This document shows, one piece after another, positions 114-51,747 of a stretch of 52,204 bases of DNA. Positions within the stretch are counted from its first letter, which is position 1. Each line of letters begins with the position of its first letter. Source of the DNA: Candidatus Pacearchaeota archaeon (lineage in GTDB: Archaea; Nanobdellota; Nanobdellia; Pacearchaeales; GW2011-AR1); contig JAWCQY010000001.1 in assembly GCA_038869535.1 (NCBI GenBank), positions 1 to 52,204 on the forward strand, written 5' to 3'. Below the pieces are notes generated by a model. The model did no database searches, was not told the DNA's origin, and worked only from the letters and a program-made list of their open reading frames with translations. Both the position numbers and the translations under genes were made by a program.

Positions 114-1211
114 TTAACTTCTGATATAATGTTTTCCCATTTCGATATTCTGCATAAATTTCTGTTCTCTTTCTATTAGCGCTTTCAATATATTTTCTCT
201 GTCATTTCCTCCAAATGCATCAAGTCTTGATTTATTTTCTTTCTTAAATTTTCTTAGTTCACTTATATCATTTATGCATTCAATTGCTCTTATAATCTTT
301 TCAGGATTTTCCCAGTCTTCTGCAGCTAATATTACTTTTTCATTAACTATTTCTGCCTTTTCAATTTCCGAAGGAATGTCCCATTGAATTGACTTATTTT
401 CAGCCGATTGACCATTTTCTTTTGCTTCAATTCCTTTTGGAAAAGCATCATTTATACTGTGATATCCTTCTTCTATTCCTTTTAGTGTCCCGCTTATTAA
501 TAATATTTTATCAATATCCCAGCTGCTCGATTTGCCAAAATTTTTTTCGATCAATTCTTTGGCAACATTTAATCTCTCAGCTCTCTTAACTAACATATCC
601 CTTGCTTTTTCAATCCCGTTCTTCTTTATATACTCTTCTAATTTTTTGCGATACCCTTCTTTTGCTCTTCTGAGACCAGCTTCTATTACATAATTAGGCA
701 GTGCATTAAGTATTACATTCCTCATTGCTTTTGAAGTCCCTATCTGAAATACTATTTCATCATTTCTCTCTTTTTCATATATAGCATTGCCTTTCTTATT
801 TTTCAAAATCTTTTTCTTAAGTATATATGGTCTCGATAAATTGAAACCAGTTTCAAAATCAATAAAGTCCCCTATCAATACATATTTATCACCTAAATCA
901 AATGGTCTCACTTCTACTGCATTATTGCCCCAATTTCTTGCAAGTATTAACGCCCCGTTTATTCCAACACCTTCTATATACTTGTCCCCCTGCGGATATG
1001 AATAATAAAAATCTTCACCGCTTATTGCTGCCTCTTGTTCTACTCTGTTTATAATATCGGTTAATTCTCTTTTTTTAATTACCTGAACTGCAGTTTGATA
1101 TCTCGTCTTTGTCTGCACAAGTCCTTGAACCCTTAAAAGTTCAGAAGCATTTAATGAATCTTCTTTTATTTCTTCTGCTTTAATTTCCAGTGCTTCATTA
1201 TTATTGTTCAT
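114..1211 (-). CDS. putative single-strand annealing protein (RecT-like)
   Basis: 365 aa, ATG with GGAG RBS. Immediately downstream of a Cas4/RecB-like exonuclease gene (the usual phage exo + annealase pair). IGTSKAMRNVILNALP resembles the RecT C-terminal KTAIRRLxKxLP motif. Not verifiable without an HMM search. Confidence 0.5.
   Translation of the reverse strand: MNNNNEALEIKAEEIKEDSLNASELLRVQGLVQTKTRYQTAVQVIKKRELTDIINRVEQEAAISGEDFYYSYPQGDKYIEGVGINGALILARNWGNNAVEVRPFDLGDKYVLIGDFIDFETGFNLSRPYILKKKILKNKKGNAIYEKERNDEIVFQIGTSKAMRNVILNALPNYVIEAGLRRAKEGYRKKLEEYIKKNGIEKARDMLVKRAERLNVAKELIEKNFGKSSSWDIDKILLISGTLKGIEEGYHSINDAFPKGIEAKENGQSAENKSIQWDIPSEIEKAEIVNEKVILAAEDWENPEKIIRAIECINDISELRKFKKENKSRLDAFGGNDRENILKALIEREQKFMQNIEMGKHYIRS
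366..383 (+). repeat. palindromic element, half copy (TTCCGAAGGAATGTCCCA)
   Basis: 16/16 match to the left arm of the 63-mer (TTCCGAAGGAATGTCC); the trailing CA diverges. Encodes DIPSE in the RecT-like ORF. Confidence 0.6.
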
Positions 1212-1229
1212 TTTATTTCTCCTTTGGAA

Positions 1230-2006
1230 TTAATTTTTAACTGTCCCGCCGTATTTTCTTTCGCATTCTGCATAATATTTGCAGTAACGTTTTGTGCACA
1301 AAAAAGAATTCCTGTTAGGTATGAAAACTCCGTTCTTTATTGCATCTCCAACTGTTTGAAATATTCTTAAAAAATGTTCTTTGTCTATTTCAACTTTTAA
1401 ATGTCTTATTTCAGTTGTATCACGCTTTAAATAATCTATTCTTGCACCTTCGACTTTATGTCCCGCTGCTTCTTCTAATATTGCATAAGCACTTATCTGC
1501 CTTTGATAGCTGATTGGAATTTTGCCGTTAATTTCTTTTGATGTTGTTTTATGATCGATAATTTGATTGTCTGTATCATATAAATCAATTGTTCCTGCTA
1601 AACCATAATCATAATTCTTAAATTTTACTTTTATCTTTTGTTCAACTGCAGCAGGAATGATTCTCGGACTCACTTCCTTTTGATATTTCTCAATTAATTT
1701 AATCCCCTGATCTTTAATTAAACCGGGTTTCTCCTCCGCTAAATCTATTTTGTCTACATTTTCAAATTCTTTGTCAAATACTTCACTGAATATCTGCTTT
1801 GCTTCTTCAATTTCTAAATCTGTTTTTGTGATTATTTTATAAGCAAAATTTTCTTTCAGGGTTTGATGTATTGAAGTGCCGAATGCTAAATAAGATTTAT
1901 TAGGCACCGCCATTTTTTCAATCTCTTGAAAGTAATATTTTGCTCCGCATTCAAGATAAGTATTTATTCCTGTTGGTCTTAAATATGTAATTGCTTTTTC
2001 TTCCAA
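1230..2006 (-). CDS. PD-(D/E)XK exonuclease, Cas4/RecB-like with Cys cluster
   Basis: 258 aa, TTG start with GAGGG RBS. Nuclease core GTIDLYD...QIIDHKT. One N-terminal Cys (LECGAKY) plus a C-terminal C-x4-C-x5-C (CTKRYCKYYAEC), as in Cas4/AddB Fe-S nucleases. Confidence 0.7.
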   Translation of the reverse strand: MEEKAITYLRPTGINTYLECGAKYYFQEIEKMAVPNKSYLAFGTSIHQTLKENFAYKIITKTDLEIEEAKQIFSEVFDKEFENVDKIDLAEEKPGLIKDQGIKLIEKYQKEVSPRIIPAAVEQKIKVKFKNYDYGLAGTIDLYDTDNQIIDHKTTSKEINGKIPISYQRQISAYAILEEAAGHKVEGARIDYLKRDTTEIRHLKVEIDKEHFLRIFQTVGDAIKNGVFIPNRNSFLCTKRYCKYYAECERKYGGTVKN

Positions 2007-2023
2007 TTTTATCCCTCAATTAT

Positions 2024-2686
2024 CTAAACAACTGTTTCTTCAAATGTAAATTCCACACCGGGAATTGTTGACTTTGCTTCATAGTCATATTTCATTCGTT
2101 CTGCTCTAATCTTCTTTTCGTCTATCATCAAGTATTCTCTTGGTACTTTGCTTTCATCAATTACTCTAAATGTCTTTATACGTCTTGTTGTTACTTTTGA
2201 TGTATTAAGCTCAGATATTTTTTTTGTTTCGGGAATAATCTCAGGTATTATCGGCACTTCTTCTCTCCCTTCTTTAATTGCTCTTTCAAGTGCTTCTTCT
2301 TCAAGTTTCCTCCGTTCTTCTTCTGCTTTTCTTTTTGCTTCTGCTTCTGTCTTCTTCTTAAATTCAAGCACTTCTCTTTCAAGCCGCTTTAATTCATCTT
2401 CATAAAGCTCTGGTATTGACTTAAAGAATGCATCAACTTCTGCTTTTTTATCTATTAATGGCTGAACTGCTCTCTTTCTGAGATTTTCAATTTCTTTTGT
2501 TATCTTTTTATAATTAGCTATATAATTAGCTGCAATTGATACATCAGATGCTGTTATTACTGCTACATCTGAGCTTTCTGCAACTGCCTTCTCAATATTG
2601 CTTTTTAATTCAAGATATCCTTCGCTGTATTTAAATGCTGCAATTATATCAGGCAGATTTATCTCAACAGATTGCATTTCGAACAT
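2024..2686 (-). CDS. hypothetical early protein, coiled-coil
   Basis: 220 aa, ATG with GAGGGA RBS. Charged coiled-coil centre (KKTEAEAKRKAEEERRKLEEEALERA). Confidence 0.6.
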   Translation of the reverse strand: MFEMQSVEINLPDIIAAFKYSEGYLELKSNIEKAVAESSDVAVITASDVSIAANYIANYKKITKEIENLRKRAVQPLIDKKAEVDAFFKSIPELYEDELKRLEREVLEFKKKTEAEAKRKAEEERRKLEEEALERAIKEGREEVPIIPEIIPETKKISELNTSKVTTRRIKTFRVIDESKVPREYLMIDEKKIRAERMKYDYEAKSTIPGVEFTFEETVV

Positions 2687-2696
2687 ATTAATCCCT

Positions 2697-2963
2697 CTAA
2701 TTTAATTTTGTAAATAAATTTACTTTTTCAGCTGCATAAGAATTTCTTAATCGTTCAGATAATACTATAGATGTAATTATTAACCGCACTAATGCTCTTT
2801 CTTCTTCACAAAGAAGTTTATGATACTTTTCATACTCTTTTAGTCTTTTTCCGAAGGAATGTCCAAAAGGACTCCTTTTGGGAATCCATTCCTTCGGAAG
2901 GAGGATTCCCACTTCAATTATTGGTCTAATTTTAAAAAGCAAATTATGATTTGATGCTGTCAC
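2697..2963 (-). CDS. hypothetical small protein; 21 codons supplied by the palindromic element
   Basis: 88 aa, GTG start abutting the upstream stop. GILLPKEWIPKRSPFGHSFGK is encoded by repeat 2849-2911. May not be a genuine gene. Confidence 0.35.
   Translation of the reverse strand: MTASNHNLLFKIRPIIEVGILLPKEWIPKRSPFGHSFGKRLKEYEKYHKLLCEEERALVRLIITSIVLSERLRNSYAAEKVNLFTKLN
2849..2911 (+). repeat. palindromic element, full 63-nt copy
   Basis: TTCCGAAGGAATGTCCAAAAGGACTCCTTTTGGGAATCCATTCCTTCGGAAGGAGGATTCCCA. Confidence 0.95.
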
Positions 2964-3889: not shown

Positions 3890-4087
3890 CTATACTTTTA
3901 AATTTTCATTTATTTTTTTTAGCATTATATCGCACACAACAACAGTCGTTGTGCAAACAGCAATAATTATTATTGCTGCAGTATATTCCTTATAACCAAT
4001 TAACAGCCCGCTTGTAAACGCTGTCATTACCGCAGTTGCAATCCATACATGAATTTTACTCAGTAGATATAAAGCATCCTTAATCAT
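3890..4087 (-). CDS. small membrane protein
   Basis: 65 aa with two hydrophobic helices. ATG with GGGGG RBS. Confidence 0.5.
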   Translation of the reverse strand: MIKDALYLLSKIHVWIATAVMTAFTSGLLIGYKEYTAAIIIIAVCTTTVVVCDIMLKKINENLKV

Positions 4088-4565: not shown

Positions 4566-4650
4566 TTCCATAAGAATGTCCCAAAGGACTCCTTCTGGGA
4601 ATCCATTCCTTCGGAATGGGAATCTATTTCTTCGTAAGGAGGATTCCCAT
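4566..4650 (+). repeat. palindromic element, 85-nt mosaic copy (mostly intergenic)
   Basis: Contains the exact core at 4597-4616, plus an extra GGGAATC unit and a degenerate right end. Confidence 0.9.
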
Positions 4651-6252: not shown

Positions 6253-6300
6253 TTTACTTAAATCGTAAAGCATAATTATATAAAAAGTATATTTAATATA

Positions 6301-6855: not shown

Positions 6856-6859
6856 ATAA

Positions 6860-7666: not shown

Positions 7667-8531
7667 TAGACCATCGGGCAAAAAAAATAACTGCATTGCA
7701 TATTCTGTCATTGTATTGCTTGTTTCTGCGGTCTTACCATTACCTTACATATATTATAAACTTTTGGGAATCCTCCTTCCGAAGGAATGGATTCCCAAAA
7801 GGAGTCCTTTTGGACATTCCTTCGGAATAAGATGGATTTTATTATTTGCCTCATTATACTTCTTTGCTCTCTTCCTGCATATAAATGACAAATATCTTGA
7901 AAGATGGTTGAAAATTTTTTTTGCAATATCTTTCCCAATTATTGCTGTTCTCTTTAATCCATTCAAACCGTTCCACTTTAATAAAATTCTTTGGAGTTAT
8001 ATTGATGTTTTTTCAGCTGTAATTTTCTCAATCTCAATTTTCCCACTAAAAGAAATGCAGGAAAATTATTCAGTAATCAAACTATTCAGTTGCTTAGAAG
8101 AACATGCACATTTAGAAAAAATACATGTTCCAATATTCGTTGCAGGCTTTATAATTTTATCTTTATTCATTCAGTTTATTCTGCCTGTTTCATTCAATAC
8201 ATATTTTCACCAGGAAACATTAATTAGTATACTGATTTATATAAGTCTGCGGGGTCTTATAGTCATTTATCTTTTAACAGTATTATTTGTTATCAATTAT
8301 TTTTACTTAAGAAGAAAACTAATTAATAATATCAAAAACAAAATTTTTTTAGAACAAAATGAATTATTCCATACATTATGCCGGGATCTTTATTCATTAA
8401 AAGACATAAACGATATAAAAAATTGGGAATATAACAATACTTACTGGCTTAAAAAACTAACAAAATCACAATATGATGAAATAATAAAATTAATAGATAC
8501 CAAAAGAAAACAGTTATCTGCTATAAATTAA
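7656..8531 (+). CDS. polytopic membrane protein carrying an in-frame palindromic element
   Basis: 291 aa with at least 5 hydrophobic helices. GILLPKEWIPKRSPFGHSFGI is encoded by repeat 7765-7827. Confidence 0.55.
   Translation: MIFNRPSGKKNNCIAYSVIVLLVSAVLPLPYIYYKLLGILLPKEWIPKRSPFGHSFGIRWILLFASLYFFALFLHINDKYLERWLKIFFAISFPIIAVLFNPFKPFHFNKILWSYIDVFSAVIFSISIFPLKEMQENYSVIKLFSCLEEHAHLEKIHVPIFVAGFIILSLFIQFILPVSFNTYFHQETLISILIYISLRGLIVIYLLTVLFVINYFYLRRKLINNIKNKIFLEQNELFHTLCRDLYSLKDINDIKNWEYNNTYWLKKLTKSQYDEIIKLIDTKRKQLSAIN
7765..7827 (-). repeat. palindromic element, full 63-nt copy (inverted)
   Basis: 63/63 identical to the reverse complement of 2849-2911. Confidence 0.95.
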
Positions 8532-21100: not shown

Positions 21101-23577
21101 TTTGGGTCTTTCCATACAATTATAGGATCAAATGCGGCTGGATTATAATTTTTTTCAATTGATGATGCTGTCTCTTCACTAAATGATGTTGCTCTATTCT
21201 GAAATCTTCCCTCATCTGTTTTTATGTCTTTAATTGGTATTTCTTTAATTTCTGCAATCTTTGTTTCAGTGGGAATCTCTTCCTTCGGATAAGGAATATC
21301 CTGTTTTTGTATTTCCTTTTCTAAAGGAATTTCTAAGGAAGAAGATTTCGGTTGAATATGTTCTTGTTTTTTCCAGCTGCTTATAAATTTTCCTTCTTTA
21401 TAATCTCCAATATCTATTTCATCATTAATTGCAGCTTGAGTTATATAATCTTCTGCAAGATTTTCTGCTTCTTTTTCTTCAATACCTTGTTTCTTAAAAT
21501 CATCAGCTAAGTATCTAAAAGCCATAGCCATAGGATCTTTGTGTGTCCCCTCTCCCATTACAAATATTTTTTCTTCACCTTTCGGTAATTTTATTTTTAT
21601 TGCTCTGCCTCTATTTGCCCCTATAACTTCCGGCTGCTTTGTTAGTGCTGATTTTTGTTCTGCAAGTCCATATAAATCTGAATCTATATCTGCATTTAAC
21701 AAATCAGCTGCTAATGTCCGCCTGCTGAAATCTTCCAGCAGTAGTCCTTTTTCAAGTTCTTTATCTTCTGCTGATGAAATTCTTGCTTTATTATTAGGCA
21801 ACTTTAAATATTCATTAAATTCAGTTTCAAAATTCTTTCCTAATTTATCTTTTGCTTCTTTAATTACTTCTGCAGTTGGTTTTTTCGTCAGGATTTCTTT
21901 TGCTTTTTGTACATTCTCTCTTTCACTTCCTGTGGGAATCCATTCCTTAGTTTGTTGTATACCCTTTCTGCTAATCCCTTCTTTTAATTTATTAACCTCT
22001 TGTTCTAATAACTCAGGATAATTTTTTTGCAGCTGCAATTCTTCCAGTGTAAATTCTTTTTCACCTTCTGCTATCTTATCAGCTAATGCTTTAATTTGCT
22101 TTTGTTCACTCGATTCTAATAATCCTTGTATTCCTTTTTTCATTGGTTCCGTTGTTTCTATCTTATCTCGTTTTTCACCAAAGAAAATTTCCCCTGCTGT
22201 AGGTGCAAGCTGTTCTAATTTCTTTTCTATTATTTCTTTCTCTTCCTGTGTTCTTCCTTTTGTGTATTTTGCTGCTTCAATTACTTTCTCGGCAGTTTTA
22301 GATTGAGGAATTCTCTCTGATGGTATTATTGGTTTTGCTTGGATTGGTATGCCTAAGCTTAGATTCTCAAATGCTTCGTTTATTTCTTTGTTTAATTTTT
22401 TCTCTAAGTTTTTATCAAGCTTAACTTTCCCGGCTTTAATTCCAATTACAGTCCCAAAGAATAATCCATTGCTTATTAATTCCTTTGCTATCTCTCTGTC
22501 CTGAGGTTTTAATTTATCAAATGCCCCTGCTTCTTCAAGTTTTTTAATTCCTTCTTCAGATAATAATGAACCTATCCCTACAGCTGGACCAAAAGCGAAT
22601 GGCAGTATTTTATTTGTAATTTCTTCTCCTTTTCTTTTATCGTAACCAAGATTTTCGGCAATTTCACCGCCAATTTCAGCTGCGAGTGGTTGTATAGCTG
22701 TATATGCTGCAACTGCAGGTATTGATTGTAACATACCTTTTAATGCACCTGCGGCCTGCTGTGCCGTACCTCTTGCTGTAGTCTCTAATCCTGCAGATAA
22801 TGGACTTATTTTGTCAAACTTAGATTTAACATTGAATCCCTGTAAACGATATAAATCTGCAATTTCTTTATTTGACGTACTTGTTATTTCATTCCCTTTT
22901 TCATCATATATTGTATAAACATTTTTTAATTCATCCTGCCCGGTTATATATCGAATCCCCTTTCTTACATTTTCTCTTCCTTTACCTATTAATTCAAGTG
23001 CATCAGCTAAATTTTCAGGAATATTTTTTATCCCTTCACCTATCTTTGATAAATATTCGAGTGCATTAACTTTTCTTGATCTTGGTGCTTCAACTGCAAT
23101 TCCGCCAACCTGAGTAAGTATGGAAGGGTGAATTTGTGCAGGTGTAAATCTTCTTCCTTTTGATGCTTCAAGTATTTTATTGATATCTTCCTTTGTTTTG
23201 ATGTCAATTGGAGTATTATGGGAATCCATTCCTTCGGAATAAGTTTGTGCAAAATTATTTTCTTTTTTTTGCTGATAATCTCTCTCTGAATTTAAGCCAG
23301 ATACTTTTGCTTTCTCAACATTATATATTGAATCTTTTTGCTCATCTGTTAAATCAGTTCTTAACCAGAAATCTGCATTGAAAGGATCATTTAGGGAATT
23401 ATATATTTCTTCTTTTCTTAATGGGGCTTGAGTCCTTTTTTTAAGTACTGATTCTACATAATCAATACGTTTTCCGACATCAATTAATTTTTGTAAGCCT
23501 CTGCCGATGGATCTTTCATTTACATCAGTTGAACTTCCCTCTATATCTATATTGATTAATTTTTCTAATCCTGTCAT
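15109..23577 (-). CDS. giant (2822 aa) polyvalent virion/ejection protein with ParB/Srx-like nuclease domain
   Basis: Single uninterrupted ORF with an ATGA overlap to the upstream gene, last gene of the late block. Gly-zipper hydrophobic region at aa 258-385 and a ParB-like domain at aa 778-880 (VLAGHSRLEG). Carries at least 3 repeat copies. Confidence 0.7.
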   Translation of the reverse strand: MTGLEKLINIDIEGSSTDVNERSIGRGLQKLIDVGKRIDYVESVLKKRTQAPLRKEEIYNSLNDPFNADFWLRTDLTDEQKDSIYNVEKAKVSGLNSERDYQQKKENNFAQTYSEGMDSHNTPIDIKTKEDINKILEASKGRRFTPAQIHPSILTQVGGIAVEAPRSRKVNALEYLSKIGEGIKNIPENLADALELIGKGRENVRKGIRYITGQDELKNVYTIYDEKGNEITSTSNKEIADLYRLQGFNVKSKFDKISPLSAGLETTARGTAQQAAGALKGMLQSIPAVAAYTAIQPLAAEIGGEIAENLGYDKRKGEEITNKILPFAFGPAVGIGSLLSEEGIKKLEEAGAFDKLKPQDREIAKELISNGLFFGTVIGIKAGKVKLDKNLEKKLNKEINEAFENLSLGIPIQAKPIIPSERIPQSKTAEKVIEAAKYTKGRTQEEKEIIEKKLEQLAPTAGEIFFGEKRDKIETTEPMKKGIQGLLESSEQKQIKALADKIAEGEKEFTLEELQLQKNYPELLEQEVNKLKEGISRKGIQQTKEWIPTGSERENVQKAKEILTKKPTAEVIKEAKDKLGKNFETEFNEYLKLPNNKARISSAEDKELEKGLLLEDFSRRTLAADLLNADIDSDLYGLAEQKSALTKQPEVIGANRGRAIKIKLPKGEEKIFVMGEGTHKDPMAMAFRYLADDFKKQGIEEKEAENLAEDYITQAAINDEIDIGDYKEGKFISSWKKQEHIQPKSSSLEIPLEKEIQKQDIPYPKEEIPTETKIAEIKEIPIKDIKTDEGRFQNRATSFSEETASSIEKNYNPAAFDPIIVWKDPKDNNIYVLAGHSRLEGMKRRGAKTIPAKFFEGTEREAINYAIIESNRKATQEDILADIRAYKKAKSEGYSKQKLLELFKKESKIKTLENYSHLDENGQFLSALNSESAKTYPYLERNASWVGELRKMYPQLTDGHEQELFDYFYRDRLSHSFIKKEELFDKVEDRVTDVTFNKYQKLALDKLENAGARARSDTRDIQLKIDLLKARNRELKKLSLGAPEEQKKIFQKEIISNIEEIKKLESNINEIVNSQFDIFEQLNQELKEGGFNEESGSQIVASGDPEELEKLAEDLESKAETAGRISTEELRKEINKSGQILFQRYIEYNDNPKNEIEISLLRAYNSFDNELPLREEILDNLIRNRWIRKTQDEEVKRALISFLKEFVKQGRYESYDNYIKRALKEKPELITSYIYLRSKLNEAVRKREKDNNFISDYRREIERKEKRENLSQQSSSIEKENKQILKQEHTSKNIFNAAKEEFGTTQNIRKAGYILPDGSMLDFSGGEDKRYLDHTEIRRLNTSIEDFIDKGAIRFMPEADAFYFTRMPTVQQMKIIKKIADIKDGYITLGIGEDFYREYDKGTKTDEIISDIENYFIYGKSKSKIDEIRKSKDYQGEREELFQLWELERTPLQELQDRRRHLQYIIESDKSSKNEKIKAEEELKKVEIQLKKLREQNNQLNIFEAEQGNLFQQSATQPSREKFQNLNDYDREIKLKQSRKNDLRTVYSKMSEGQRRKFLDELVKGIDKEWLIGQKDLTKEQAKGLTDLLEKAILFDPEKADLTTAWEESFHASIVTLARPYLARNLLRENGWDGKGEIWDVKNNESLRNAHENLAKKYIEWRKRQEENPAEPKTRLEKLFQLLRELWAKIASFLNKIGFKTEAGYFYDLATGKLRKSNEKVSDNEFYNELAKSQTDFEKSLEDFKNGKLTKPAKVTTTPEILVKLGAEQLPVIITPETIAKVIHKHQITYEQLKDLPVELHDPIMVFQSATRPNSFVIMTELRSDKGNIVAAIHLSKREQQHFVNKIASVYIKERDKTFIEWIDKGLLRYYNKNKSQIWLRSAGLRLPMEVTKSGSTKILTEDDLINNKLMQKISEIQEELYPKDLKYYMDRIATIKNIYELKNWRKKHEAEIEELPAWERDDIINAWNEQHRLFTGERGGWEAEKVNRKYESKYEGTKEEFKKYLPQASELFDEGYRRYADFSKKIRERAGDISPDDILKLFRETYKAKLREYRKSKEEEGTIVEPKADLTDKKTEELKNEIKKILINKNMPKKLQEEILRTAEEIINNPKNRLGKYSKIRALTEFGEKIKLMTLKYGAAGAELAQRIAHGTKNRMDIIERYYEIINKIEDVYDKIKSESGEQEIKRIEAKIIKALEDRDNVKEILKSDIEKELYELYLKIYGGKDIPFGFYNEIKKAGYKVRSDYFPHIIRDSFIIDEIISNPADVMEINTKGLNNFISANSRYLNPREFDIKDIRRDLLGITKNYIFSVSKALAYKDAVNYYYTDFKNDIPPLLKKQSMRTAIQYMRSVLDPEIPSRNLFMRMLRGMRNAEYTNFLSFSLKNAVQNYTQKDFAKLYMTPEAVRITNKIFYKYKQATGNLLNAIYEASHETPRYLELSMEDIKRSRLLRINEKIRKVEPFQLAELSNWKYAELGGIIDYVIKQPEYKRLRNKGLSEIEAINKVLENRDTFDTAVRNGMDLASQTQISPSAAYRPSLFDKELIRFFLMFKRFPIATLEHISQTIFTSMKGAEGLRAQRILRRGLSENVKPVEMLRAAELYRKAAELMIKNYKNYEEEFGISDLKEYHYWLKKQEESLNKTIEKLEPMRNKSQIIYHWSKYWAKAALISSAFSFIYDLTDAMFYNLIHGEEEKDRLMELLAGENLTEKEKERLINKLIAKTLFDISPLPFYALNPQNFAASPLLPKVEIFPYGDYFNWNKRGITRSLTSYGLNVVPVLGLVDRVTGRAISKKITDWIVPEEEKEKTKIMIPKINIERASAGR
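17892..17952. repeat. long GC-containing hairpin inside the giant ORF
   Basis: AGCCGGATTTGGTTAC (17892-17907) pairs with GTAACCAAATCTGGCT (17937-17952): 16 bp with one mismatch. The 29-nt loop is GC-rich. Confidence 0.6.
20938..21246 (-). other. ParB/sulfiredoxin-like nuclease domain of the giant protein
   Basis: IPIKDIKTDEGRFQNR...DPIIVWKDPKDNNIYVLAGHSRLEGMKRRG. Confidence 0.65.
21271..21289 (+). repeat. palindromic element core, degenerate
   Basis: GGGAATCTCTTCCTTCGGA in the giant ORF (KEEIPT). Confidence 0.45.
21934..21948 (+). repeat. palindromic element core, 15-nt partial
   Basis: GGGAATCCATTCCTT in the giant ORF (KEWIPT). Confidence 0.6.
22423..22806 (-). other. Gly/Ala-rich hydrophobic (glycine-zipper-like) region of the giant protein
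   Basis: PLSAGLETTARGTAQQAAGALKGMLQSIPAVAAYTAIQPLAAEIGG...LPFAFGPAVGIGSLL...GLFFGTVIGIKAG. Confidence 0.5.
23220..23239 (+). repeat. palindromic element core, exact 20-mer
   Basis: GGGAATCCATTCCTTCGGAA. Encodes SEGMDSH in the giant ORF. Confidence 0.95.
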
Positions 23578-25327: not shown

Positions 25328-25792
25328 TCATTCCTTTGGAACAAGCCAATAATTTTTTTCTAAAATTTTATGATTTTCAAAACATTCATAAAATCCTGCT
25401 TTCTTGAAAATCTTTGCATTTTTTTCATTCGCAAAACATCTTATAATTTTTATTCCTTTTTCTTTAATATAATTTTCAATGTAATCCCAGAGTTTTTTCC
25501 CAATTATTGCATTCTCGGAAATGAATGGTTCTATCATCAACACAAATCTTAAATTTGCAATTGCTTTTATTTGACCATTATTATCCTCTGCAATAATCAA
25601 TTTGCCTTCTTTCGGAAATGTTATATTATATTTTTTCTCAAATTCATTTATTTTATTACTGTCATTTTCTAATATTGGGTATCCTCCTTCCGAAGGAATG
25701 TCCAAAAGGACTCCTTTGGAGGATTCCCAAAAGGAGTCTTTTGGGACATCCATTTGGGAATAATCACGAATTTTCATAATTGTAAATCCCAT
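25328..25792 (-). CDS. GNAT-family N-acetyltransferase with repeat-derived N-terminal segment
   Basis: 154 aa. ...ENAIIGKKLWDYIENYIKEKGIKIIRCFANEKNAKIFKKAGFYE fits the GNAT motif A region. Residues about 11-38 are encoded by mosaic repeat 25677-25760. Confidence 0.6.
   Translation of the reverse strand: MGFTIMKIRDYSQMDVPKDSFWESSKGVLLDIPSEGGYPILENDSNKINEFEKKYNITFPKEGKLIIAEDNNGQIKAIANLRFVLMIEPFISENAIIGKKLWDYIENYIKEKGIKIIRCFANEKNAKIFKKAGFYECFENHKILEKNYWLVPKE
25677..25760. repeat. palindromic element, 84-nt rearranged mosaic copy
   Basis: GGGTATCCTCCTTCCGAAGGAATGTCCAAAAGGACTCCTTTGGAGGATTCCCAAAAGGAGTCTTTTGGGACATCCATTTGGGAA. 28 codons of the GNAT ORF. Confidence 0.85.
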
Positions 25793-26847: not shown

Positions 26848-27728
26848 TATAGCACCACAATTTTAGTAGATAAAAAATTCAGTAGTTGACTATATATACC
26901 ACCAACCTGCCACGAATATAATAATATAGCCGCTCCACTAACTGAAATAGTAATTGGCTTCCATTTATTTAAACCAGCATCATAACTTAACACTTGCCCA
27001 TCTTGAGGATTATCAATACTTACATCTTTTAATGATTTTAACTCGTTATCTTTCCATTCAACATCATAATCTGAAGTAGATTTCTTAACTATAATTTGAC
27101 CAACATTGCCGCCTGTTATTAAACCTGGACCTCTATATTTCTTCCACAATCCTGCAAAATCAGAAGCTTGTGGATTCTCAATCGGTGTTGTTGCAGAAAG
27201 TATAGCAATATAATCTAAATCAGGATTGAAATTTAATGTGAAATTATTGCCTTCATTATCAGATGCATAAGCTATATAAACAAATGCACCTGTTCCGTCA
27301 TTTCCTTGCTCTCCTTTTATCTTTTTCCATAAACCGACAAAATCTGATTGTGTTGGATTTATTATTTCTTCTCTTGTATGCTTTATAGCTATATAATCTT
27401 TATTTTCATCAAAAGTTAACGTGAACCCATTACCATTAGCATCATCTGCATAAGCAATGTAAATATATGTATTAGAACCACCAGAGCTTGAATTTTCTAT
27501 TTCCGAAGGAATGGATTCCCATACTCTGTATTCTCCATTGATTTTTATATACTCTTTATAAATTCCTTCTTTTTCTTTCTTGAAAAATCTCGAGTATTCT
27601 TTTACAAGATTTTTTGGGGGCAATTCATTTACTAATTTCCCTGTTAAATTTTCTACCTCATGGATTATAAAATCTAATTCTTTGTCAAGTCCGTTTATCT
27701 GAGGAAATTTATGAAGTCTCTTAATCAT
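26847..27728 (-). CDS. tail fibre / host-specificity-like protein with two tandem about 52-aa repeats
   Basis: 293 aa. Y[IV]YIAYA.D..G..FTL.F....DYIAI......I.NP..SDF.GLWKK..G occurs twice, a motif common in phage receptor-binding proteins. Confidence 0.6.
   Translation of the reverse strand: MIKRLHKFPQINGLDKELDFIIHEVENLTGKLVNELPPKNLVKEYSRFFKKEKEGIYKEYIKINGEYRVWESIPSEIENSSSGGSNTYIYIAYADDANGNGFTLTFDENKDYIAIKHTREEIINPTQSDFVGLWKKIKGEQGNDGTGAFVYIAYASDNEGNNFTLNFNPDLDYIAILSATTPIENPQASDFAGLWKKYRGPGLITGGNVGQIIVKKSTSDYDVEWKDNELKSLKDVSIDNPQDGQVLSYDAGLNKWKPITISVSGAAILLYSWQVGGIYSQLLNFLSTKIVVL
27132..27470 (-). repeat. in-frame tandem domain repeat (2 x about 52 aa) in the tail protein
   Basis: aa 87-139 and 148-199 of ORF 26847-27728. 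Confidence 0.7.
27501..27520 (-). repeat. palindromic element core, exact 20-mer (inverted)
   Basis: TTCCGAAGGAATGGATTCCC. Encodes ESIPSE in the tail protein. Confidence 0.95.
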
Positions 27729-29304: not shown

Positions 29305-30252
29305 TTATGGAGTTACCGTATAATCAAATTCATTCACTATTTTATTTAATGCATTTAACTCTGATTTATTAAGAACAGATAATGATGCATAATTGTTTAC
29401 TGTTACATCTGCTTCAGGCTCACTTGTAAGAAATGTTTCTGTTTCATATAAAATGTTGTTCACGTTTTTATTCAACTTATCTTTAACAATATATTCGATA
29501 TTTGTTATACCGAATATATTTTGGAATGTAATTTCTTTGCCTGTAGAAAATGCCATCAATTCACTGCTTATTTCCTGTTTTGTTTGCTCGCTTGTTGAAT
29601 ATATTCTGCAGTAATATATCTGCTCTAATTCCAACCCGGTAATTAATTCATCGTGATAAAATTCATATTCATCATTTCTTACCTCATTGCTTAAATTCTC
29701 AGGAGACAGTCCATATACTACTCTTCCTTTGGCTCTATGTGTAGTTGCCCATACTACTTTTACAGAATTTGCCGTTACCTCACCTGCTAATGGTACTTTT
29801 ATTTCAAATGGAGTATATATTATAGAAAAACTTGGCGGTTCAGGCTGTTCTTCTATTTCCATTAATTGCAATGGTTTGCCGCCATACTTCCCAATTGGAA
29901 TTTCTTTTACTGAAATCCTTAAAGATGTCAATTCAAGTTCTTCTGCATATCCATATAATCTAATGTAAAAACATACTGCGAGTATTCCCGGCGGCAGTTT
30001 CTGCTTGAATATTTTATCATCTTTGTTCAGTTTAAATGTTACGCTTTCCCATTGCATATCAGTATTTCTTTTATAATATACAGTTATAAATAATTCTCCA
30101 TGGGAATCCATTCCTTCGGAAGAAGTTTTTATTTTATAAAATTCACCTGATATATAGCCAAGTAAATATCTGCCATTGCTTTGACTTTCTTCGAATATAT
30201 TAATTACTGGACCCGAAACATCTATTTCAATAGCATTACCATAATCATTCAT
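29305..30252 (-). CDS. structural protein with FN3-like domain
   Basis: 315 aa. VTANSVKVVWATTHRAKGRVVYGLSPENLSNEV...YYCRIYS is fibronectin-III / PAP-N-like. Core repeat at 30102-30121 encodes SSEGMDSH. Confidence 0.5.
   Translation of the reverse strand: MNDYGNAIEIDVSGPVINIFEESQSNGRYLLGYISGEFYKIKTSSEGMDSHGELFITVYYKRNTDMQWESVTFKLNKDDKIFKQKLPPGILAVCFYIRLYGYAEELELTSLRISVKEIPIGKYGGKPLQLMEIEEQPEPPSFSIIYTPFEIKVPLAGEVTANSVKVVWATTHRAKGRVVYGLSPENLSNEVRNDEYEFYHDELITGLELEQIYYCRIYSTSEQTKQEISSELMAFSTGKEITFQNIFGITNIEYIVKDKLNKNVNNILYETETFLTSEPEADVTVNNYASLSVLNKSELNALNKIVNEFDYTVTP
30102..30121 (+). repeat. palindromic element core, exact 20-mer
   Basis: Encodes SEGMDSH in the FN3-domain protein. Confidence 0.95.
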
Positions 30253-30776
30253 AATATTTTTCCTGTTATATTGAATTTAACAACGAAAATAATTATTAAT
30301 ACAATTACCAGAAATATTATTATTCCTTTTGCTGCATATCCCAATTTTTCGGTTGTTGTAACTTCTTTTTTCTCTGTTATCATTGTTGTATCTGATATTA
30401 TTGTATCAACTTTATGTTCTTCTATATCAAGCTCAAAAAATTTTTTCTTGGGATAATATTTTACTTTTGCTTTTGTTTTGCCTTTTGCTGTCATTATCTC
30501 TTTTTCTCCTTCTATTCTTGCTTCTTCTGGTACCTTTTGAAATAGACTGTCAATTGCTTTGGTTATTTCAGCAGATATATCTTTATATTCAGCTTTTATC
30601 GAATCTTCAATTTTAGGGATGGTAATTTCAACTTTTCTTGCTTTAATTATTGTCTCCCCGCTTGAACAGGCAATTACAAGTATTATTAAACTAATTCCGA
30701 AGGAATGTCCAAAAGGACTCCTTTTGGGAATCCATTCCTTCAGAAGGAGGATTCCCAAAACAATTATATTTTTCAT
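30249..30776 (-). CDS. unimolecular-spanin-like lipoprotein (N-terminal lipobox, C-terminal TMD) interrupted by the 63-nt element
   Basis: 175 aa. ATGA overlap with the endolysin stop. Lipobox LVIAC|SSG. C-terminal helix GIIIFLVIVLIIIFVV. Codons 8-26 come from the repeat. Confidence 0.55.
   Translation of the reverse strand: MKNIIVLGILLLKEWIPKRSPFGHSFGISLIILVIACSSGETIIKARKVEITIPKIEDSIKAEYKDISAEITKAIDSLFQKVPEEARIEGEKEIMTAKGKTKAKVKYYPKKKFFELDIEEHKVDTIISDTTMITEKKEVTTTEKLGYAAKGIIIFLVIVLIIIFVVKFNITGKIL
30695..30757 (+). repeat. palindromic element, full 63-nt copy (62/63)
   Basis: One mismatch (CGGAAGG to CAGAAGG). Lies inside the spanin-like signal peptide. Confidence 0.95.
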
Positions 30777-39164: not shown

Positions 39165-39649
39165 TATAAATCAACTTCTCCTGATTTCTTTTCCCGAAGG
39201 GATGAATTCCCAGATTTCACTTTTATATCATGTATAATTCTCTCAATTATTCTTTCACTGCTCTGATTTTCAACTTTTTTTAACCCCAATGCTTTTGCTG
39301 TTAGTATCAAATTTTTCTTTTCAAGTTCATTTAATGCTATCTCAAGTCTGTCATGGTTTATTTCAAGAAATTCAATTGGATTAAACTCACCCTTTTGCTC
39401 ATTCGTATCATTCGTTTCATAAGGCTCTTCTCCCGAAGGGATATCCCCTATGACTCCTTCAGAGGATTCCCGCTCATCTGCCAGTCTGTAAATATGCGGA
39501 TAATTCTTAATGTAGTAATCTGCTATATAATCAGGCACCTCTATTGGCTTTTTTGCTTCTAATTCTATAACCAACTTATCTTTATTTGGAAATTTCCATT
39601 TTGGTGGAATTACTAACACTTTATCTGCTTGGCTTATAATTTTTTTCAT
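39164..39649 (-). CDS. hypothetical acidic head-associated protein carrying two degenerate repeat copies
   Basis: 161 aa, AAGGAG RBS. ERESSEGVIGDIPSGEEP is encoded by 39429-39473. Confidence 0.55.
   Translation of the reverse strand: MKKIISQADKVLVIPPKWKFPNKDKLVIELEAKKPIEVPDYIADYYIKNYPHIYRLADERESSEGVIGDIPSGEEPYETNDTNEQKGEFNPIEFLEINHDRLEIALNELEKKNLILTAKALGLKKVENQSSERIIERIIHDIKVKSGNSSLREKKSGEVDL
39191..39212. repeat. palindromic element, degenerate fragment
   Basis: TTCCCGAAGGGATGAATTCCCA. Confidence 0.4.
39429..39473 (+). repeat. palindromic element, short variant
   Basis: TCTCCCGAAGGGATATCCCCTATGACTCCTTCAGAGGATTCCCGC. Confidence 0.65.
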
Positions 39650-41520: not shown

Positions 41521-42879
41521 TTAATATTTATTTCTGATGCTCTCTAAAATTTTATCCAGCTGTTCATCATCTGTAATTTTTCTTATATCATCAAAATCTA
41601 TTGACTTACTCGTTCCTTTCGAATGTCCTAATGTTTTTAAATTTTCATCCTTCAATTTCTCAATAGTCTGTTTATCTTTTTTAATTTTATTATTAACAAG
41701 AGTTGTAAGAATTTTTGCATTATTCTCATAAATGAATTTCTTTGCTAATTGTCCTTTCTTCAGGAACGGAACTTTACCAATTCTGCCAATTACATTATTG
41801 TCAACTTCATTGCCATTCAGCATTAAAGAATTTAATGTTTCATTGTAATAGCTCCCATTTTCATCTTTTTCAAGATTCAAGTCTACTCCTAAATCTTTTT
41901 CCTCAATACCATATTTTTTTAACTCTTCCCTGATCATTTTCACTTCTTCTTCAAGTGCTCTGTTGTTCACTTCACGGAAATTATCATTTAATTCTTTAAG
42001 CTTTGGCAATGTTTTTTCATTTAGAATTGGCAAAAGCTCTGCAGGTGTTTCATTATACAGGTTCTTTAAATGCACTTGTGCATATAACACTTTTTGAAAT
42101 TCATTTTTTATTTCAGAAGTTGTATTTTCTAAATCACGAAGAAATTCATTTACTTTTTTATAACCGCCTTCATCAAATAACGCTCTTTCCCATTCCCTGT
42201 ACTCTTCGCTGGTCATATCTTCAGGCATATCAGGATATTTTTTCTTCAATCTTTTGACGGTTTCTCTGTCAATAATTTCTTTCATTTCATTTTCTGGTAC
42301 TTCGGAAAATTCTATTTTAGGTGAAGTTTTTATTTTCTCTTCTCCCTCTGTAACAGGTAATCCAGTCTTAGCCTGAGTTTCTATAAGTGTTTTTAATACT
42401 TCTTCGTCACTTTGAGAACTTATTTTTTTTGCTATAGCTTGTATTGCTTCTTCGTTGTCTCTCAAATAAGGATTTTTCATTGCTATAGCATTGGCAGCTG
42501 CAAAAGCAAGCTCTTCTTTGTTTTTGCCTCTGTACTTGTTCAGTATTTTTCTATATTCTTCAGGCTGATTCTCTATTATTTTATCACTTAAAACAAATGT
42601 CTCTTCTTCTGCTGTTTCTTCTTCTTCCGAAGGAATGTCCCGAAGGACTCCTTCTGAGGATTCCCGCTCTCCCTCATCTTGTTTTTCTTCTTCAGAAGTA
42701 TCCTTTTCGGGTTCTGAAGTTTCTTCTTTCGATGAAGTATCCATTTCGGGTTCATCGAATTTTTCTTTGATGAGTTCTAATGCAGCATCAATCTCTTCAT
42801 CATCAGTTAAATTCTTTATTACATCTAACCTGTCATCTTCATCTATAAATTCAGTTTCATTTTCTTTGTAATCAGCCAT
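41521..42879 (-). CDS. scaffolding protein (acidic, coiled-coil)
   Basis: 452 aa, highly acidic N-terminus, long helical regions. Lies between portal and capsid. Repeat variant 42625-42667 encodes ERESSEGVLRDIPSEEE. Confidence 0.55.
   Translation of the reverse strand: MADYKENETEFIDEDDRLDVIKNLTDDEEIDAALELIKEKFDEPEMDTSSKEETSEPEKDTSEEEKQDEGERESSEGVLRDIPSEEEETAEEETFVLSDKIIENQPEEYRKILNKYRGKNKEELAFAAANAIAMKNPYLRDNEEAIQAIAKKISSQSDEEVLKTLIETQAKTGLPVTEGEEKIKTSPKIEFSEVPENEMKEIIDRETVKRLKKKYPDMPEDMTSEEYREWERALFDEGGYKKVNEFLRDLENTTSEIKNEFQKVLYAQVHLKNLYNETPAELLPILNEKTLPKLKELNDNFREVNNRALEEEVKMIREELKKYGIEEKDLGVDLNLEKDENGSYYNETLNSLMLNGNEVDNNVIGRIGKVPFLKKGQLAKKFIYENNAKILTTLVNNKIKKDKQTIEKLKDENLKTLGHSKGTSKSIDFDDIRKITDDEQLDKILESIRNKY
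42625..42667 (+). repeat. palindromic element, short variant
   Basis: TTCCGAAGGAATGTCCCGAAGGACTCCTTCTGAGGATTCCCGC. Confidence 0.8.
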
Positions 42880-48120: not shown

Positions 48121-48181
48121 CCGATTACAAACCGTTTATAATACTAAATTCATCTTCTTAAAGGAAAAAATAAATTCTTCT

Positions 48182-48201
48182 GGAAGTCCATTCCTTTGGA
48201 A
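48182..48201 (+). repeat. palindromic element core, degenerate (17/20), intergenic
   Basis: GGAAGTCCATTCCTTTGGAA in the terminase upstream gap. Confidence 0.5.
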
Positions 48202-49234: not shown

Positions 49235-49254
49235 ACTTTTCTTTTTCCGAAGGA

Positions 49255-49307
49255 ATGTCCTAAAGGATTCCTACGGAGGTCCAAAGGACTCCTTCGGGAG
49301 ATTTCCA
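49255..49307 (+). repeat. palindromic element, mosaic copy, intergenic
   Basis: TTCCGAAGGAATGTCCTAAAGGATTCCTACGGAGGTCCAAAGGACTCCTTCGGGAGATTTCCA. Confidence 0.8.
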
Positions 49308-49321
49308 TTAATGCTATAAAA

Positions 49322-49870: not shown

Positions 49871-50624
49871 GTGTTTTAAAATTCCTGAAATTACGTAACC
49901 TTGCTTCTTTCATGATTTCCAGCGTTTTATCTCCACCAAACTGCATAATCAAATTTTCAATGAACTCCCGTTCAGGAATCGTTGGACTTCTCCCATAACT
50001 CCGTATTAATATTTCTGCTGCAGGATCCTTGTTTTTCTCATGAGAAAAATTTTGGGAATCCATTCCTTCGGAATTTGATGCGGGCGGGTTTATATATATC
50101 TCACTCTCATTTAATTTCCTTTCCTTTAATTTCTTTTCCTTTAATTTCTTTTCCCCGTTTCTGACAGCAGAAACTTTAATTAAATCGAATTTCTGTTGGC
50201 AATTATCCGTTTCTATTTGGGAATCCATTCCTTTGGAAGTAGTTTCTGCTTGCATTAACGGCTTTTTAGGCAGCTCAGCCTTCCTTCTTCTAAATGCATC
50301 TTTCACGTTATCCACTAAGTTCTGGCACCATATTATTTTATTTTTAGTCCATAATTCCTTGTCTATTGCATCTAATTCTGCCAGTGTATTTAAGATACTG
50401 CAGGCAATATCCTTTGTTACCCGAGTTTTTGCCAGCAGAAACTCCCAGTCTCCAACGTTATTGCAGTCATAATACATTCCTTCAGTGTTGCCGAGTATTT
50501 CAAGCAGTTTGAACCAAAAAGCATATCCATCATTTCCGTATCTGTTTTCCAATATGTATATTGTTTTTCCATGATGAATATTATGCGGGAAATAATTTAT
50601 TGTAGATTTTTGCGGTCTGCTCAT
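49734..50624 (-). CDS. DUF4373 / DnaD-like replication initiator-organiser
   Basis: 296 aa. INYFPHNIHHGKTIYILENRYGNDGYAFWFKLLEILG is typical of DUF4373. C-terminus is DnaD-like. The linker holds 3 x 15-bp repeats and two core repeat copies. Confidence 0.65.
   Translation of the reverse strand: MSRPQKSTINYFPHNIHHGKTIYILENRYGNDGYAFWFKLLEILGNTEGMYYDCNNVGDWEFLLAKTRVTKDIACSILNTLAELDAIDKELWTKNKIIWCQNLVDNVKDAFRRRKAELPKKPLMQAETTSKGMDSQIETDNCQQKFDLIKVSAVRNGEKKLKEKKLKERKLNESEIYINPPASNSEGMDSQNFSHEKNKDPAAEILIRSYGRSPTIPEREFIENLIMQFGGDKTLEIMKEARLRNFRNFKTLENAIDKNGNIKPKEGNNGIYAKHINEDKLRRIAEDIARDPDLKR
50054..50073 (+). repeat. palindromic element core, exact 20-mer
   Basis: Encodes SEGMDSQ in the initiator linker. 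Confidence 0.95.
50110..50154. repeat. 3 tandem 15-bp repeats TTTAATTTCYTTTCC (iteron-like)
   Basis: 50110-50124, 50125-50139 and 50140-50154. They encode KKLKEKKLKERKL in the initiator linker. Confidence 0.7.
50229..50248 (+). repeat. palindromic element core, 19/20
   Basis: GGGAATCCATTCCTTTGGAA. Encodes SKGMDSQ. Confidence 0.9.
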
Positions 50625-50631
50625 ACTTAAC

Positions 50632-51183
50632 TCAATTTATTATTGTTATTTTAATGTCAGGATGAAGCATTTTAAATATGCTTTCAAAAAGTCTGAACTT
50701 CAGCTTCCATAGTTCCATTCTTACTCCTTTTATTTCTACATACTCAAGTGAATTATCATTATGCACAATTACAAAATCGATATAATAATTACATATATGT
50801 ACAGCATTTTTATTTTCTTTTTTTAATTCGAGCATTGTCCTGTCAGTTAATTCAGGTTTGTTATCATTATCTAATACATTGATTTCTATCTTTACCTGCC
50901 TCCGCCAGTCTTTAATATCTCCTGCATTCTTTCGTAAATCAAGTTCTTTTGCATACTCTGCTTCCCAGCTGCTGTGATATATTATTCCGTTATATACCGC
51001 TTTTTTATGCTTGTTAAGCCTTGCCTTCGACTTTTCGTATAATCTTTTATATTCATCAGGATTAATCAAATCGGGCAGCTCTTCTGGATTTCTGTAAAAG
51101 TAGATTTTTTTAATTCCCGCTTTATTAAGGAAACTTTTCTTTTTCTTTTTTCTAAAACTGTATTTTTCTATTTCATTATGCAT
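50632..51183 (-). CDS. DUF1064-like PD-(D/E)XK endonuclease (resolvase-like)
   Basis: 183 aa. YHSSWEAEYAKEL...NYYIDFVIV...LEYVEIKG. Confidence 0.5.
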   Translation of the reverse strand: MHNEIEKYSFRKKKKKSFLNKAGIKKIYFYRNPEELPDLINPDEYKRLYEKSKARLNKHKKAVYNGIIYHSSWEAEYAKELDLRKNAGDIKDWRRQVKIEINVLDNDNKPELTDRTMLELKKENKNAVHICNYYIDFVIVHNDNSLEYVEIKGVRMELWKLKFRLFESIFKMLHPDIKITIIN

Positions 51184-51216
51184 ATACTGCCTTTAATTGA
51201 CTTATATTATTTAATA

Positions 51217-51280
51217 ATGCAGGGAGTGGAGACAGAGGATGTCTCAAGTGCGGCGAGGGCGGACCGCCAACCCCCTGCAT
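51217..51280. ncRNA. GC-rich three-helix structured element (candidate ncRNA/leader)
   Basis: 8-bp closing helix ATGCAGGG/CCCTGCAT. Hairpin GAGACA-GAGGA-TGTCTC. GC helix GGCG/CGCC. About 60% G+C in an intergenic gap. Confidence 0.35.
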
Positions 51281-51294
51281 AATTAACTTGCACA

Positions 51295-51747
51295 TCAATC
51301 AATAAATAATTCCATTTGCTCTCCCGTTACTAATTTTTGCAGTTTCATCTGCATTACTTTAACTTTATATGCATATATCATCGACTGCAGAAATTCGTAT
51401 TTGCCGCCTTTTGCTCTGTAAAATTTTATTCCTTTTACCATTCCTTTCTTGGTGTATGCTATATAAAATCCTTCATTGCAGCTGCATATTGGGAATCCAT
51501 TCCTTCGGAAAAAGTAAAAAGGTTTGTTTAACAAAGATTTTGCAAATTCTTCATCCTGCAGCTGCCTCATTAATTTTGTTAACCTCCTTTGAAAATTATG
51601 CTCACTATCATTTTGTCCCGAATATCTTAAATAGAAAAATTCAGTGCTCTTCAATGCTCTTTCATCATTGCTGTATATTATCAAATCATTTAATATGTTT
51701 TCTTTTGTTAGTTCTTTCATCATTAATCCCTGCAATTTCATATTCAT
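51295..51747 (-). CDS. hypothetical protein
   Basis: 150 aa. Core repeat 51491-51510 encodes RRNGFPI. Confidence 0.5.
   Translation of the reverse strand: MNMKLQGLMMKELTKENILNDLIIYSNDERALKSTEFFYLRYSGQNDSEHNFQRRLTKLMRQLQDEEFAKSLLNKPFYFFRRNGFPICSCNEGFYIAYTKKGMVKGIKFYRAKGGKYEFLQSMIYAYKVKVMQMKLQKLVTGEQMELFID
51491..51510 (+). repeat. palindromic element core, exact 20-mer
   Basis: Encodes RRNGFPI in ORF 51295-51747. Confidence 0.95.

Follow-up and report, generated by a model that had tools for sequence, protein, structure and literature searches.

A nested family of 21-nt units, open in all six frames, in the genes of a tailed phage and of its probable Ignavibacteriaceae hosts

How can one short sequence recur within unrelated genes of a phage, read in several frames, and leave those genes open? 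The question is raised by contig JAWCQY010000001.1, whose 52,204 nt (hereafter the window, meaning the whole stretch of DNA analysed) belong to a temperate tailed phage according to domain scans of the open reading frames (ORFs). An initial annotation made from the sequence alone had reported eight occurrences of the exact 20-mer GGGAATCCATTCCTTCGGAA. Their number, positions and strands were all reproduced; none is expected by chance and none was found in 100 dinucleotide-preserving shuffles. Six further window copies carry one to three mismatches (one of them, placed at 50229 in the annotation, lies at 50219), and of the 13-nt core CATTCCTTYGGAA there are 19 occurrences where chance predicts 0.22. 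The analysis reported here leads us to regard these repeats as, probably, non-autonomous mobile mini-elements made of two 21-nt units, A and B, which are active in this phage lineage, also reach the chromosomes of its probable Ignavibacteriaceae hosts and would be mobilised in trans.

Unit A (TGGGAATCCATTCCTTYGGAA) is the consensus of 57 non-redundant copies collected from the window and other loci. It is 21 nt (seven codons) long because a 5′ T precedes nearly every copy of the 20-mer. All 21 positions are strongly conserved, loop position 17 being either C or T. Unit B (TCCAAAAGGACTCCTTTGGAG), also of 21 nt, is seen only within A and always at C8^C9 (the caret marks the insertion point). Its target is the centre of A (TGGGAATC^CATTCC), which is entered in a fixed relative orientation by B alone or by B with a nested A; no solo B was found in any sequence examined. 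The 42-mer is A read on the other strand (A′, TTCCGAAGGAATG^GATTCCCA) with B inserted at the caret, the 63-mer is this 42-mer with a further A placed in B at CTCCTTT^GGAG, and two elements of ~84 nt are each a stack of the 63-mer type with one more unit. The “palindromes” of 42, 63 and 84 nt are nested stacks of A and B. The 63-mer was indeed found where the initial annotation had located it (at 2849, at 7765 as its reverse complement and, with one mismatch, at 30695), but it is a nested composite; the mobile unit is the 21-mer.

Each A has one small hairpin at positions 11–21 (TTCC-TTY-GGAA) with a stem of 4 bp. Among 30 distinct variants T12>C tends to go with A20>G, pair 12-20 being UA in 17 and CG in eight, and this compensated pair, which fits the small 3′ hairpin, is modest evidence for it. 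The termini of A (TGGGAATC and TTCGGAA) do not form an inverted repeat. The composites of 42 and 63 nt fold into strong hairpins (z-scores relative to shuffles between -2.7 and -4.8). For the 63-mer, whose folding had been proposed as a check, the hairpin has a folding energy of -20.8 kcal/mol for DNA and of -31.6 kcal/mol for RNA. Recomputation returned the G+C content previously given for this sequence (30/63), its lack of TA dinucleotides and its freedom from stop codons in six frames, a property shared by 0.015% of its mononucleotide shuffles and 0.15% of the 63-mers of the window.

The strongest evidence for movement is given by a sister strain (contigs L052 and L053, run SRR27730022) that was compared with the window over ~24.5 kb. 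At ~99% identity, the two differ by 157 substitutions; the indels of at least 2 nt number exactly nine, every one of them an event of this family. Solo A copies at 30101, 50053, 50218 and 51490 are found in the window only, and an intact 21-nt A′ at window position 342, near the truncated A at 366, in the sister only. A window-only B at 25701 lies within a composite that existed before. At 2862, 7774 and 30708 the window has an identical 42-nt cargo of B plus A and the sister has an uninterrupted solo A at all three sites. Relatives provided the clean empty sites for which the initial annotation had suggested searching, of exactly 7, 14, 21 and 28 codons. No target-site duplication was found in ten pairs of filled and empty sites, and at the junctions of the five recent solo-A insertions microhomology amounts to 1, 0, 0, 1 and 3 nt. 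The family is currently active in this phage lineage. For window positions 8–24 kb and 39–48 kb, exact-protein searches for the sister sequence returned only contigs of the window type or nothing.

The remaining differences between the two strains are two gene-cassette swaps only. Window positions 6255-7570 (ORFs 6301-6855 and 7163-7666) do not align to the sister, which has an NfeD/ClpP-like protease gene instead; this is a module swap in the lysogeny region of near-identical phages. The second cassette (~48527-49310) comprises the DUF5131 gene (48503-49234) and the composite upstream of it, both absent from the sister. Its junction is at ATTCATT/TTCCATTA, exactly at the end of the composite, and family elements may mark or mediate the exchange of gene cassettes.

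Two more distant phages polarise the events. Phage R (IMGVR_UViG_3300009503_000040), of ~70% DNA identity to the window, is itself heavily invaded, at other sites; it has exact inserts of seven codons (SKGMDSQ, WDSIPSE, FQRNGFP) that are missing from the window. Phage L038 shares the replication/recombination module at 52–82% protein identity and has no copies of the family in the 21 kb compared. The differences are assigned to insertion rather than deletion because these outgroups lack the copies: L038 that at 2849, R those at 30101 and 51490, and both phages those at 50053 and 50218, neither of them encoding the corresponding peptides. A solo A in R was considered and rejected as an orthologous forerunner from which the 84-mer at 25677 could have arisen, the two insertions being five codons apart.

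Insertion shows a preference for its 3′ flank. The sequence following A is of the type N-A-A-G: 39 of 57 copies have G at position +25, as do 5/5 recent solo-A sites, and positions +23 and +24 are mostly A. Read on the other strand, A′ stands directly 3′ of CTTN. The motif pre-exists in two of the four empty sites that can be read (AAAG in L038 and GGAG in a host gene, L049), and the site of A within B (^GGAG) obeys the same flank rule. The target of B differs from that of A in being very specific, namely the centre of A in a constant relative orientation.

Genes survive these insertions because the length of each unit is divisible by three and its sequence is free of stop codons in all six frames, so that 7, 14, 21 or 28 residues are added to the protein. 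The copies sit at protein termini, in linkers or at positions that vary, which is consistent with their surviving where a protein can bear additional residues. Translations of the window ORFs bear out that different frames give different peptides (GILLPKEWIPKRSPFGHSFG, SEGMDS, WESIPSE, FRRNGFP and DSFWESSKGVLLDIPSEGG). Orthologues do not encode the same peptides by divergent codons and the copies are read in several frames and both orientations; the similarity resides, as had been argued, in the DNA. Within long ORFs we count 16 of 19 copies and not the 17 reported, those at 4566-4650, 48182 and 49240-49307 being intergenic or touching an ORF end only. The orientation bias relative to transcription that had been described holds only for the intact 21-mers (9/10) and disappears when each element is classified by its outermost unit (11 plus versus nine minus).

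In the mechanism that we favour, A inserts precisely, without target-site duplication, at many sites and preferentially 5′ of N-A-A-G; B, alone or with a nested A, enters the centre of A only and builds up “Russian dolls” of 42, 63 and 84 nt. Mobilisation would take place in trans, because nothing in the window resembles a transposase: as stated by the initial annotation, no transposase domain was found in its scanned ORFs, nor one of a REP-associated tyrosine transposase (RAYT; REP, repetitive extragenic palindrome), an HNH nuclease or a reverse transcriptase. By analogy, the likeliest mobiliser might be an enzyme of the HUH type that recognises hairpins in single-stranded DNA (Y1/RAYT-like or IS91-like); the exact ends, the one-sided short target preference, the hairpin with a compensated pair and the lack of target-site duplication are all HUH-like features.

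Several observations weigh against this explanation. No mobilising enzyme, HUH/Y1 domains included, was detected in the window ORFs scanned, and a crude tblastn search with an approximate query gave no match to an IS200 TnpA in 411 kb of retrieved loci. To our knowledge no element whose transposition has been shown experimentally is as small as a 21-nt unit with a single hairpin. The covariation concerns one stem pair, possibly from a single subfamily, and solo A does not surpass shuffled sequences in folding energy. The N-A-A-G bias is not strict, and part of it could stem from the survival of insertions in linkers rich in Glu and Lys instead of from the specificity of an enzyme. Finally, some older insertions measure 8, 10 or 13 codons relative to R, which are not multiples of 21 nt, although boundaries cannot be fixed at that divergence. 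The DUF5131 protein was also considered as mobiliser, since the window has its gene whereas the less invaded sister lacks it. It was rejected because its kin are radical-SAM-like (DUF5131 has been grouped with such families; PMC9477430), it has no relative in the PDB, and it was not found in the compared parts of the heavily invaded phage R.

A bolder proposal takes A and B as the smallest self-defined mobile DNA units described so far, A being a generalist of coding DNA and B a hyper-parasite restricted to the centre of A and able to bring along another A, with sequences shaped for translation in six frames and a propagation outside the known transposase families, either by a new hairpin-specific enzyme or by an enzyme-independent route linked to replication. 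We hold this to be possible but rather doubtful.

Spread without any transposase is a less probable alternative still, to which we give a minor share. Hairpins would stall replication, and template switching or RecT-like annealing would result in gene conversion and in occasional ectopic templated insertion. The window does encode a RecT-like protein and a PD-(D/E)XK exonuclease (domain scans), and the missing transposase suits this explanation as well. The presence of the same 42-nt cargo at three solo-A sites would be neatly accounted for if a composite donor were copied by way of the two halves of A, of 13 nt and 8 nt; composites of other phages moreover reuse lineage-specific 8-mers as inverted copies, as in local inverted duplication. 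Arms of 8 and 13 nt are, however, too short for efficient annealing-based recombination in Red/RecT systems, and a donor with the exact B is missing from the composites common to the sister strain. At naive sites solo A has exact 21-nt boundaries in 5/5 recent events despite a microhomology of only 0–3 nt. L038, whose RecT/exonuclease module is the same at 81–82% identity, is nevertheless the phage in which no copies were found in the 21 kb compared.

It was also suggested by the initial annotation that the repeat might be a functional cis-site that the proteins tolerate. A selected 21-mer of this kind (an iteron-like binding site, a signal for recombination or uptake, or a hairpin in the RNA) would be expected to conserve its sequence and compensate its stem pair, as is seen here; 21 nt correspond to two helical turns, the linker of the replication initiator, where lambda-type origins have iterons, contains two copies, and A is found within CTAATTC heptamer arrays in unrelated phage contigs. 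We nevertheless disfavour it strongly. Copies are not kept between 99%-identical strains or related phages, with 0 same-site counterparts in R at the sites compared. Those of the initiator gene are missing from three relatives, and their assignment as origin iterons was rejected on that ground. Copies also occur within a MITE (a miniature inverted-repeat transposable element) and a transposase gene, the copy in a host gene has decayed (4/21 positions changed in L050), and the element has no match in Rfam. A signal of the DNA-uptake or Chi type would be dense across the host chromosome; at most four exact copies per genome were found among 185,579 species representatives, a distribution unlike that of uptake sequences. 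Lastly, selection of a peptide motif at the protein level or an assembly or chimera artefact, for which nothing speaks apart from the repeated peptides themselves, can be set aside: at least five combinations of frame and orientation are used to read one and the same DNA, independent assemblies from other runs and centres contain the element, and an artefact in the window is ruled out by Logan assemblies of another run that reproduce it, elements included, over 20 kb (L054, 100% identity; L055, 99.98%).

Spread through this phage, as first proposed, stands, but the family extends to related and unrelated phages and to chromosomal genes of Ignavibacteriaceae. Exact matches outside the phage clade are few, in an unrelated phage contig (L001), other metagenomic contigs and metagenome-assembled genomes (MAGs) of Ignavibacteriaceae, Ignavibacteriales and Melioribacter. 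The phage is the main habitat seen, since the 52 kb of the window contain ~20 elements (~1 copy per 3 kb) and representative genomes have no more than four exact 20-mers; the four of one MAG all lie within the copies of one MITE. The phage host probably belongs to Ignavibacteria/Ignavibacteriaceae. An Ignavibacteriaceae transketolase with an in-frame A has 7–8 residues more than solved structures, and a host NfnB/GltD-like oxidoreductase with an in-frame A has 18–19 extra residues. Among 120 close orthologues of the latter ~108 are empty, two have an insert of 11 residues and ten one of 18 residues, the additional seven residues being derived from A in eight of these ten. The DNA gives the corresponding series from empty to +33 nt and +33+21 nt, with A′ at TCTYC^GACT. 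The decay of this A′ in one lineage, the L050 copy mentioned above, argues against constraint on the sequence after insertion.

The 33-nt in-frame insert of the NfnB-like gene in L049 (GGAGCTTCGTCTCCGACTTCGCCTTCTCAAGG-like, with two small hairpins) follows the DELMKK codons and is older than A. In the orthologues P0010 and P0120 a different segment of seven residues, PAGQAGS or PAGKAGS, stands where others have the A peptide. Because of this insert and these segments, other families of mini-inserts may exist.

The MITE that contains A is an element of ~150 nt in the Ignavibacteriales MAG bin_135, found on at least four contigs (L007, L011, L012 at ~4037-4190, and L014), several contigs of this MAG breaking within it. 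It has terminal inverted repeats of 14 bp (AGAGACATCTGAAA...TTTCAGAAGTCTCT) and an intact A at 18 nt from one end. This multicopy repeat was examined as an autonomous parent and rejected, as it merely contains A. A search for a long autonomous element bounded by A termini yielded coincidental pairs only, L044 and L045 being the same unrelated sequence. An IS5/IS1182-type transposase ORF (L022 1945-3135, also in L023 and L030) has three in-frame copies of the A family (FRRNGFP, RRDGFP and GIHPFG), from which it follows that the mini-element also invades other mobile elements. In the unrelated phage-like contigs L001 (~5470), L018 (~6120) and L021 (1340-1470) A lies within long CTAATTC/CTTACTT heptamer arrays, which may be an origin or an iteron region. 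Tandem runs of 21-mers, each with a variable part of 8 nt and a conserved part of 13 nt, are also present in L021 and L036. Contigs of Eubacterium human-gut MAGs (L008, L010, L013, L025, L031, L033 and L034) have the exact 20-mer once, flanked by CTCGCG...CGCG; they were rejected as family members, being one orthologous G+C-rich locus without Rfam match, and treated as chance or unrelated.

The closest described phenomena are, by analogy, the intragenic REPs and the Rickettsia palindromic elements (RPEs), which are short dispersed G+C-rich palindromic repeats, some of them lying in frame within functional genes and adding 20–30 or more residues (PMC3733652). They occur as singletons, dimers and clusters and are thought to be mobilised in trans, and REPs are recognised by a GTAG or CGTC tetranucleotide conserved at one end (PMC3733652). 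In-frame palindromic elements are therefore already known as a class, and the A family resembles them in lying in frame in functional ORFs without disrupting these. It is not a classical REP, since the A consensus has neither the GTAG nor the CGTC tag. REPs are imperfect palindromes of 20–40 nt; the A unit is only 21 nt long with a 4-bp stem, the window copies are mostly intragenic where REPs are mainly extragenic, and no cognate RAYT (Y1) gene flanked by A repeats was found among the window ORFs scanned. RPEs are set apart by length (~100–150 bp against 21–84 nt) and lineage (Rickettsia against Ignavibacteria). Neither REPs nor RPEs share the phage habitat, with its copy density far above that of any host genome found, or the nesting of two units in which B enters the centre of A only.

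Of the earlier designation of the family as a MITE/REP-like, non-autonomous and coding-tolerant element the substance is supported, but “MITE” is a wrong label because target-site duplications and real terminal inverted repeats are both lacking. MITEs measure 50–800 bp and have terminal inverted repeats of at least 10 bp with target-site duplications. Those shared by viruses and hosts are of this size and structure, and ~90% of the cellular ones are intergenic (bioRxiv 10.1101/2024.01.18.576219). Our family resembles the latter in that the same short non-autonomous element is present in phage and host and links the virus to a host lineage; it differs by its 21–84 nt, its mostly intragenic location and the lack of target-site duplication.

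A likeness to the IS200/IS605 (Y1 HUH) and IS91/Helitron (Y2 HUH) elements may be seen in the exact boundaries, the hairpin-defined ends and the lack of target-site duplication. The one-sided short target of IS200/IS605 and IS91 may likewise have its counterpart in CTTN^ beside A′, a loose preference that may reflect codon content. IS608 inserts at TTAC^ and IS91 at CTTG or GTTC. The A unit differs from IS200/IS605 in having one small hairpin instead of subterminal hairpins at both ends, and no TnpA/HUH gene was found in the scans described above; its 21 nt are also far below the known sizes of miniature HUH derivatives, and its choice of target is not strict. In fungal mitochondria, GC clusters and double-hairpin elements are similar as G+C-rich, modular, nested hairpins that invade an AT-rich, gene-dense genome, coding regions included, and their mobiliser has yet to be identified. 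Ours belong to a bacterial and phage lineage and consist of a strict 21-nt unit open in six frames, for which reason neither ribosomal bypassing nor splicing is needed. An incomplete literature search found no such elements described in Ignavibacteria or in phage structural genes. The family is a REP/RPE-like but distinct variant, characterised by its 21-nt unit, two-unit nesting, six-frame-open design and enrichment in a phage genome.

Mobile DNA as small as seven codons can spread with exact ends and at a high rate (~9 insertions per 157 substitutions), and its insertions remodel phage structural proteins, replication proteins and host housekeeping proteins by added peptides instead of gene breakage. 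The enzyme or process that moves REP-like hairpins is still an unresolved matter for REPs in general; the two near-identical strains in the public runs SRR27730022 and SRR27730037 offer a system to find this mover. Units as short as A and B escape the programs that detect MITEs and insertion sequences, and inserts of this length can mislead protein alignments and phylogenies based on indels. The shared element is a marker that ties these phages to Ignavibacteria, and its insertion sites are a natural map of the positions in phage proteins that tolerate peptides. The copies in the window are listed in Table 1 together with the integrase gene.

Table 1. Copies of the A/B family in the window, and the phage integrase gene.
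Feature	Position	Strand	Composition	Location	Comparison and remarks
Truncated A	366..383	-	+ strand TTCCGAAGGAATG-TCCCA; 18 nt, GAT missing	C-terminal linker of RecT-like ORF 114-1211	
63-nt composite	2849..2911	-	A ends with 42-nt cargo (B and nested A)	21 codons of ORF 2697-2963	L038 wholly empty (GAAG^AAAG); solo 21-mer in sister L052
~84-nt composite	4566..4650	-	Degenerate A ends, B, intact A, tandem degenerate A	Intergenic, overlaps last codons of ORF 4624-4917	Also present in sister
63-nt composite	7765..7827	+		DUF6804 membrane-protein ORF 7656-8531	Solo A in sister
Integrase gene	12105-13271				Domain scan
Degenerate solo A	21270..21290	+	3 mismatches	Gene of 2822-aa MuF/ParB polyvalent protein	
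Partial A	21933..21953	+	First 16 nt intact, 3′ end decayed	Giant-protein gene, encodes ..EWIP..	
Intact solo A	23219..23239	+		Giant-protein gene, SEGMDSH	Absent from phage R
Four-level composite	25676..25760	+	A(B′(A′(B))), 84/85 nt	28 codons at N-terminus of ORF 25328-25792	R lacks all 28 codons; innermost B (25701-25721) window-only relative to L053
Intact solo A	27501..27521	-		Tail/host-range-like ORF 26847-27728, WESIPSE	Also in sister; sole intact window copy in sense orientation
Intact solo A	30101..30121	+		ORF 29305-30252, SEGMDSH	Exact 21-nt indel, window-only relative to L053; R has 8 codons fewer
63-nt composite	30695..30757	-	1 mismatch	N-terminus of membrane ORF 30249-30776	Solo A′ in sister
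Solo A variant	39192..39212	-	Compensated stem TCCC..GGGA	ORF 39164-39649	
Diverged 42-nt composite	39429..39473	-	A′ with B-like cargo	ORF 39164-39649	R orthologue has different family copies in the same linker
42-nt composite	42625..42666	-	A′ with B variant	Acidic N-terminal linker of ORF 41521-42879	
Degenerate solo A	48181..48201	+	3 mismatches	Intergenic	
63-nt composite	49245..49307	-	A′ ends with two B-like units	Intergenic, directly upstream of DUF5131 gene	
Intact solo A	50053..50073	+		Linker of replication-initiator ORF 49734-50624, SEGMDSQ	Window-only; exact 7-codon gap in P0121/L052
Solo A variant	50218..50238	+	TTTGGAA loop variant	Linker of replication-initiator ORF, SKGMDSQ	Window-only; exact 7-codon gap in P0121/L052
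Intact solo A	51490..51510	+		ORF 51295-51747, FRRNGFP	Window-only relative to sister; R has 13 codons fewer

The window has a G+C content of 30.5%. Besides the proteins already named, the domain scans identified an S24/LexA-type repressor, an initiator of the Lin1244/DnaD type, the portal protein, the large terminase, the major capsid protein and the 2822-aa MuF/ParB polyvalent protein. A BLAST search of annotated phage records gave no relative, and scans of the window and ten loci for Rfam families and tRNAs gave nothing relevant, the window having neither. The sister contig L052 joins window position 52204 to position 128 through ~450 nt, of which ~320 nt lie outside the window; because this contig bridges the two ends with ~320 additional bases, the window is a nearly complete, permuted genome. 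A separate repeat of ~37 nt (ATCATCATCGGCTTCTTTTTATCGAATTACCGTTAAT-like, 70–81% identity) is present in three intergenic gaps (29239-29275, 33596-33632 and 41421-41457). The late genes concerned are ORF 27728-29182, ORF 32074-33534 and the gene of the major capsid protein, respectively; each has its copy directly upstream on the coding strand, and the repeat may be a late promoter or leader motif.

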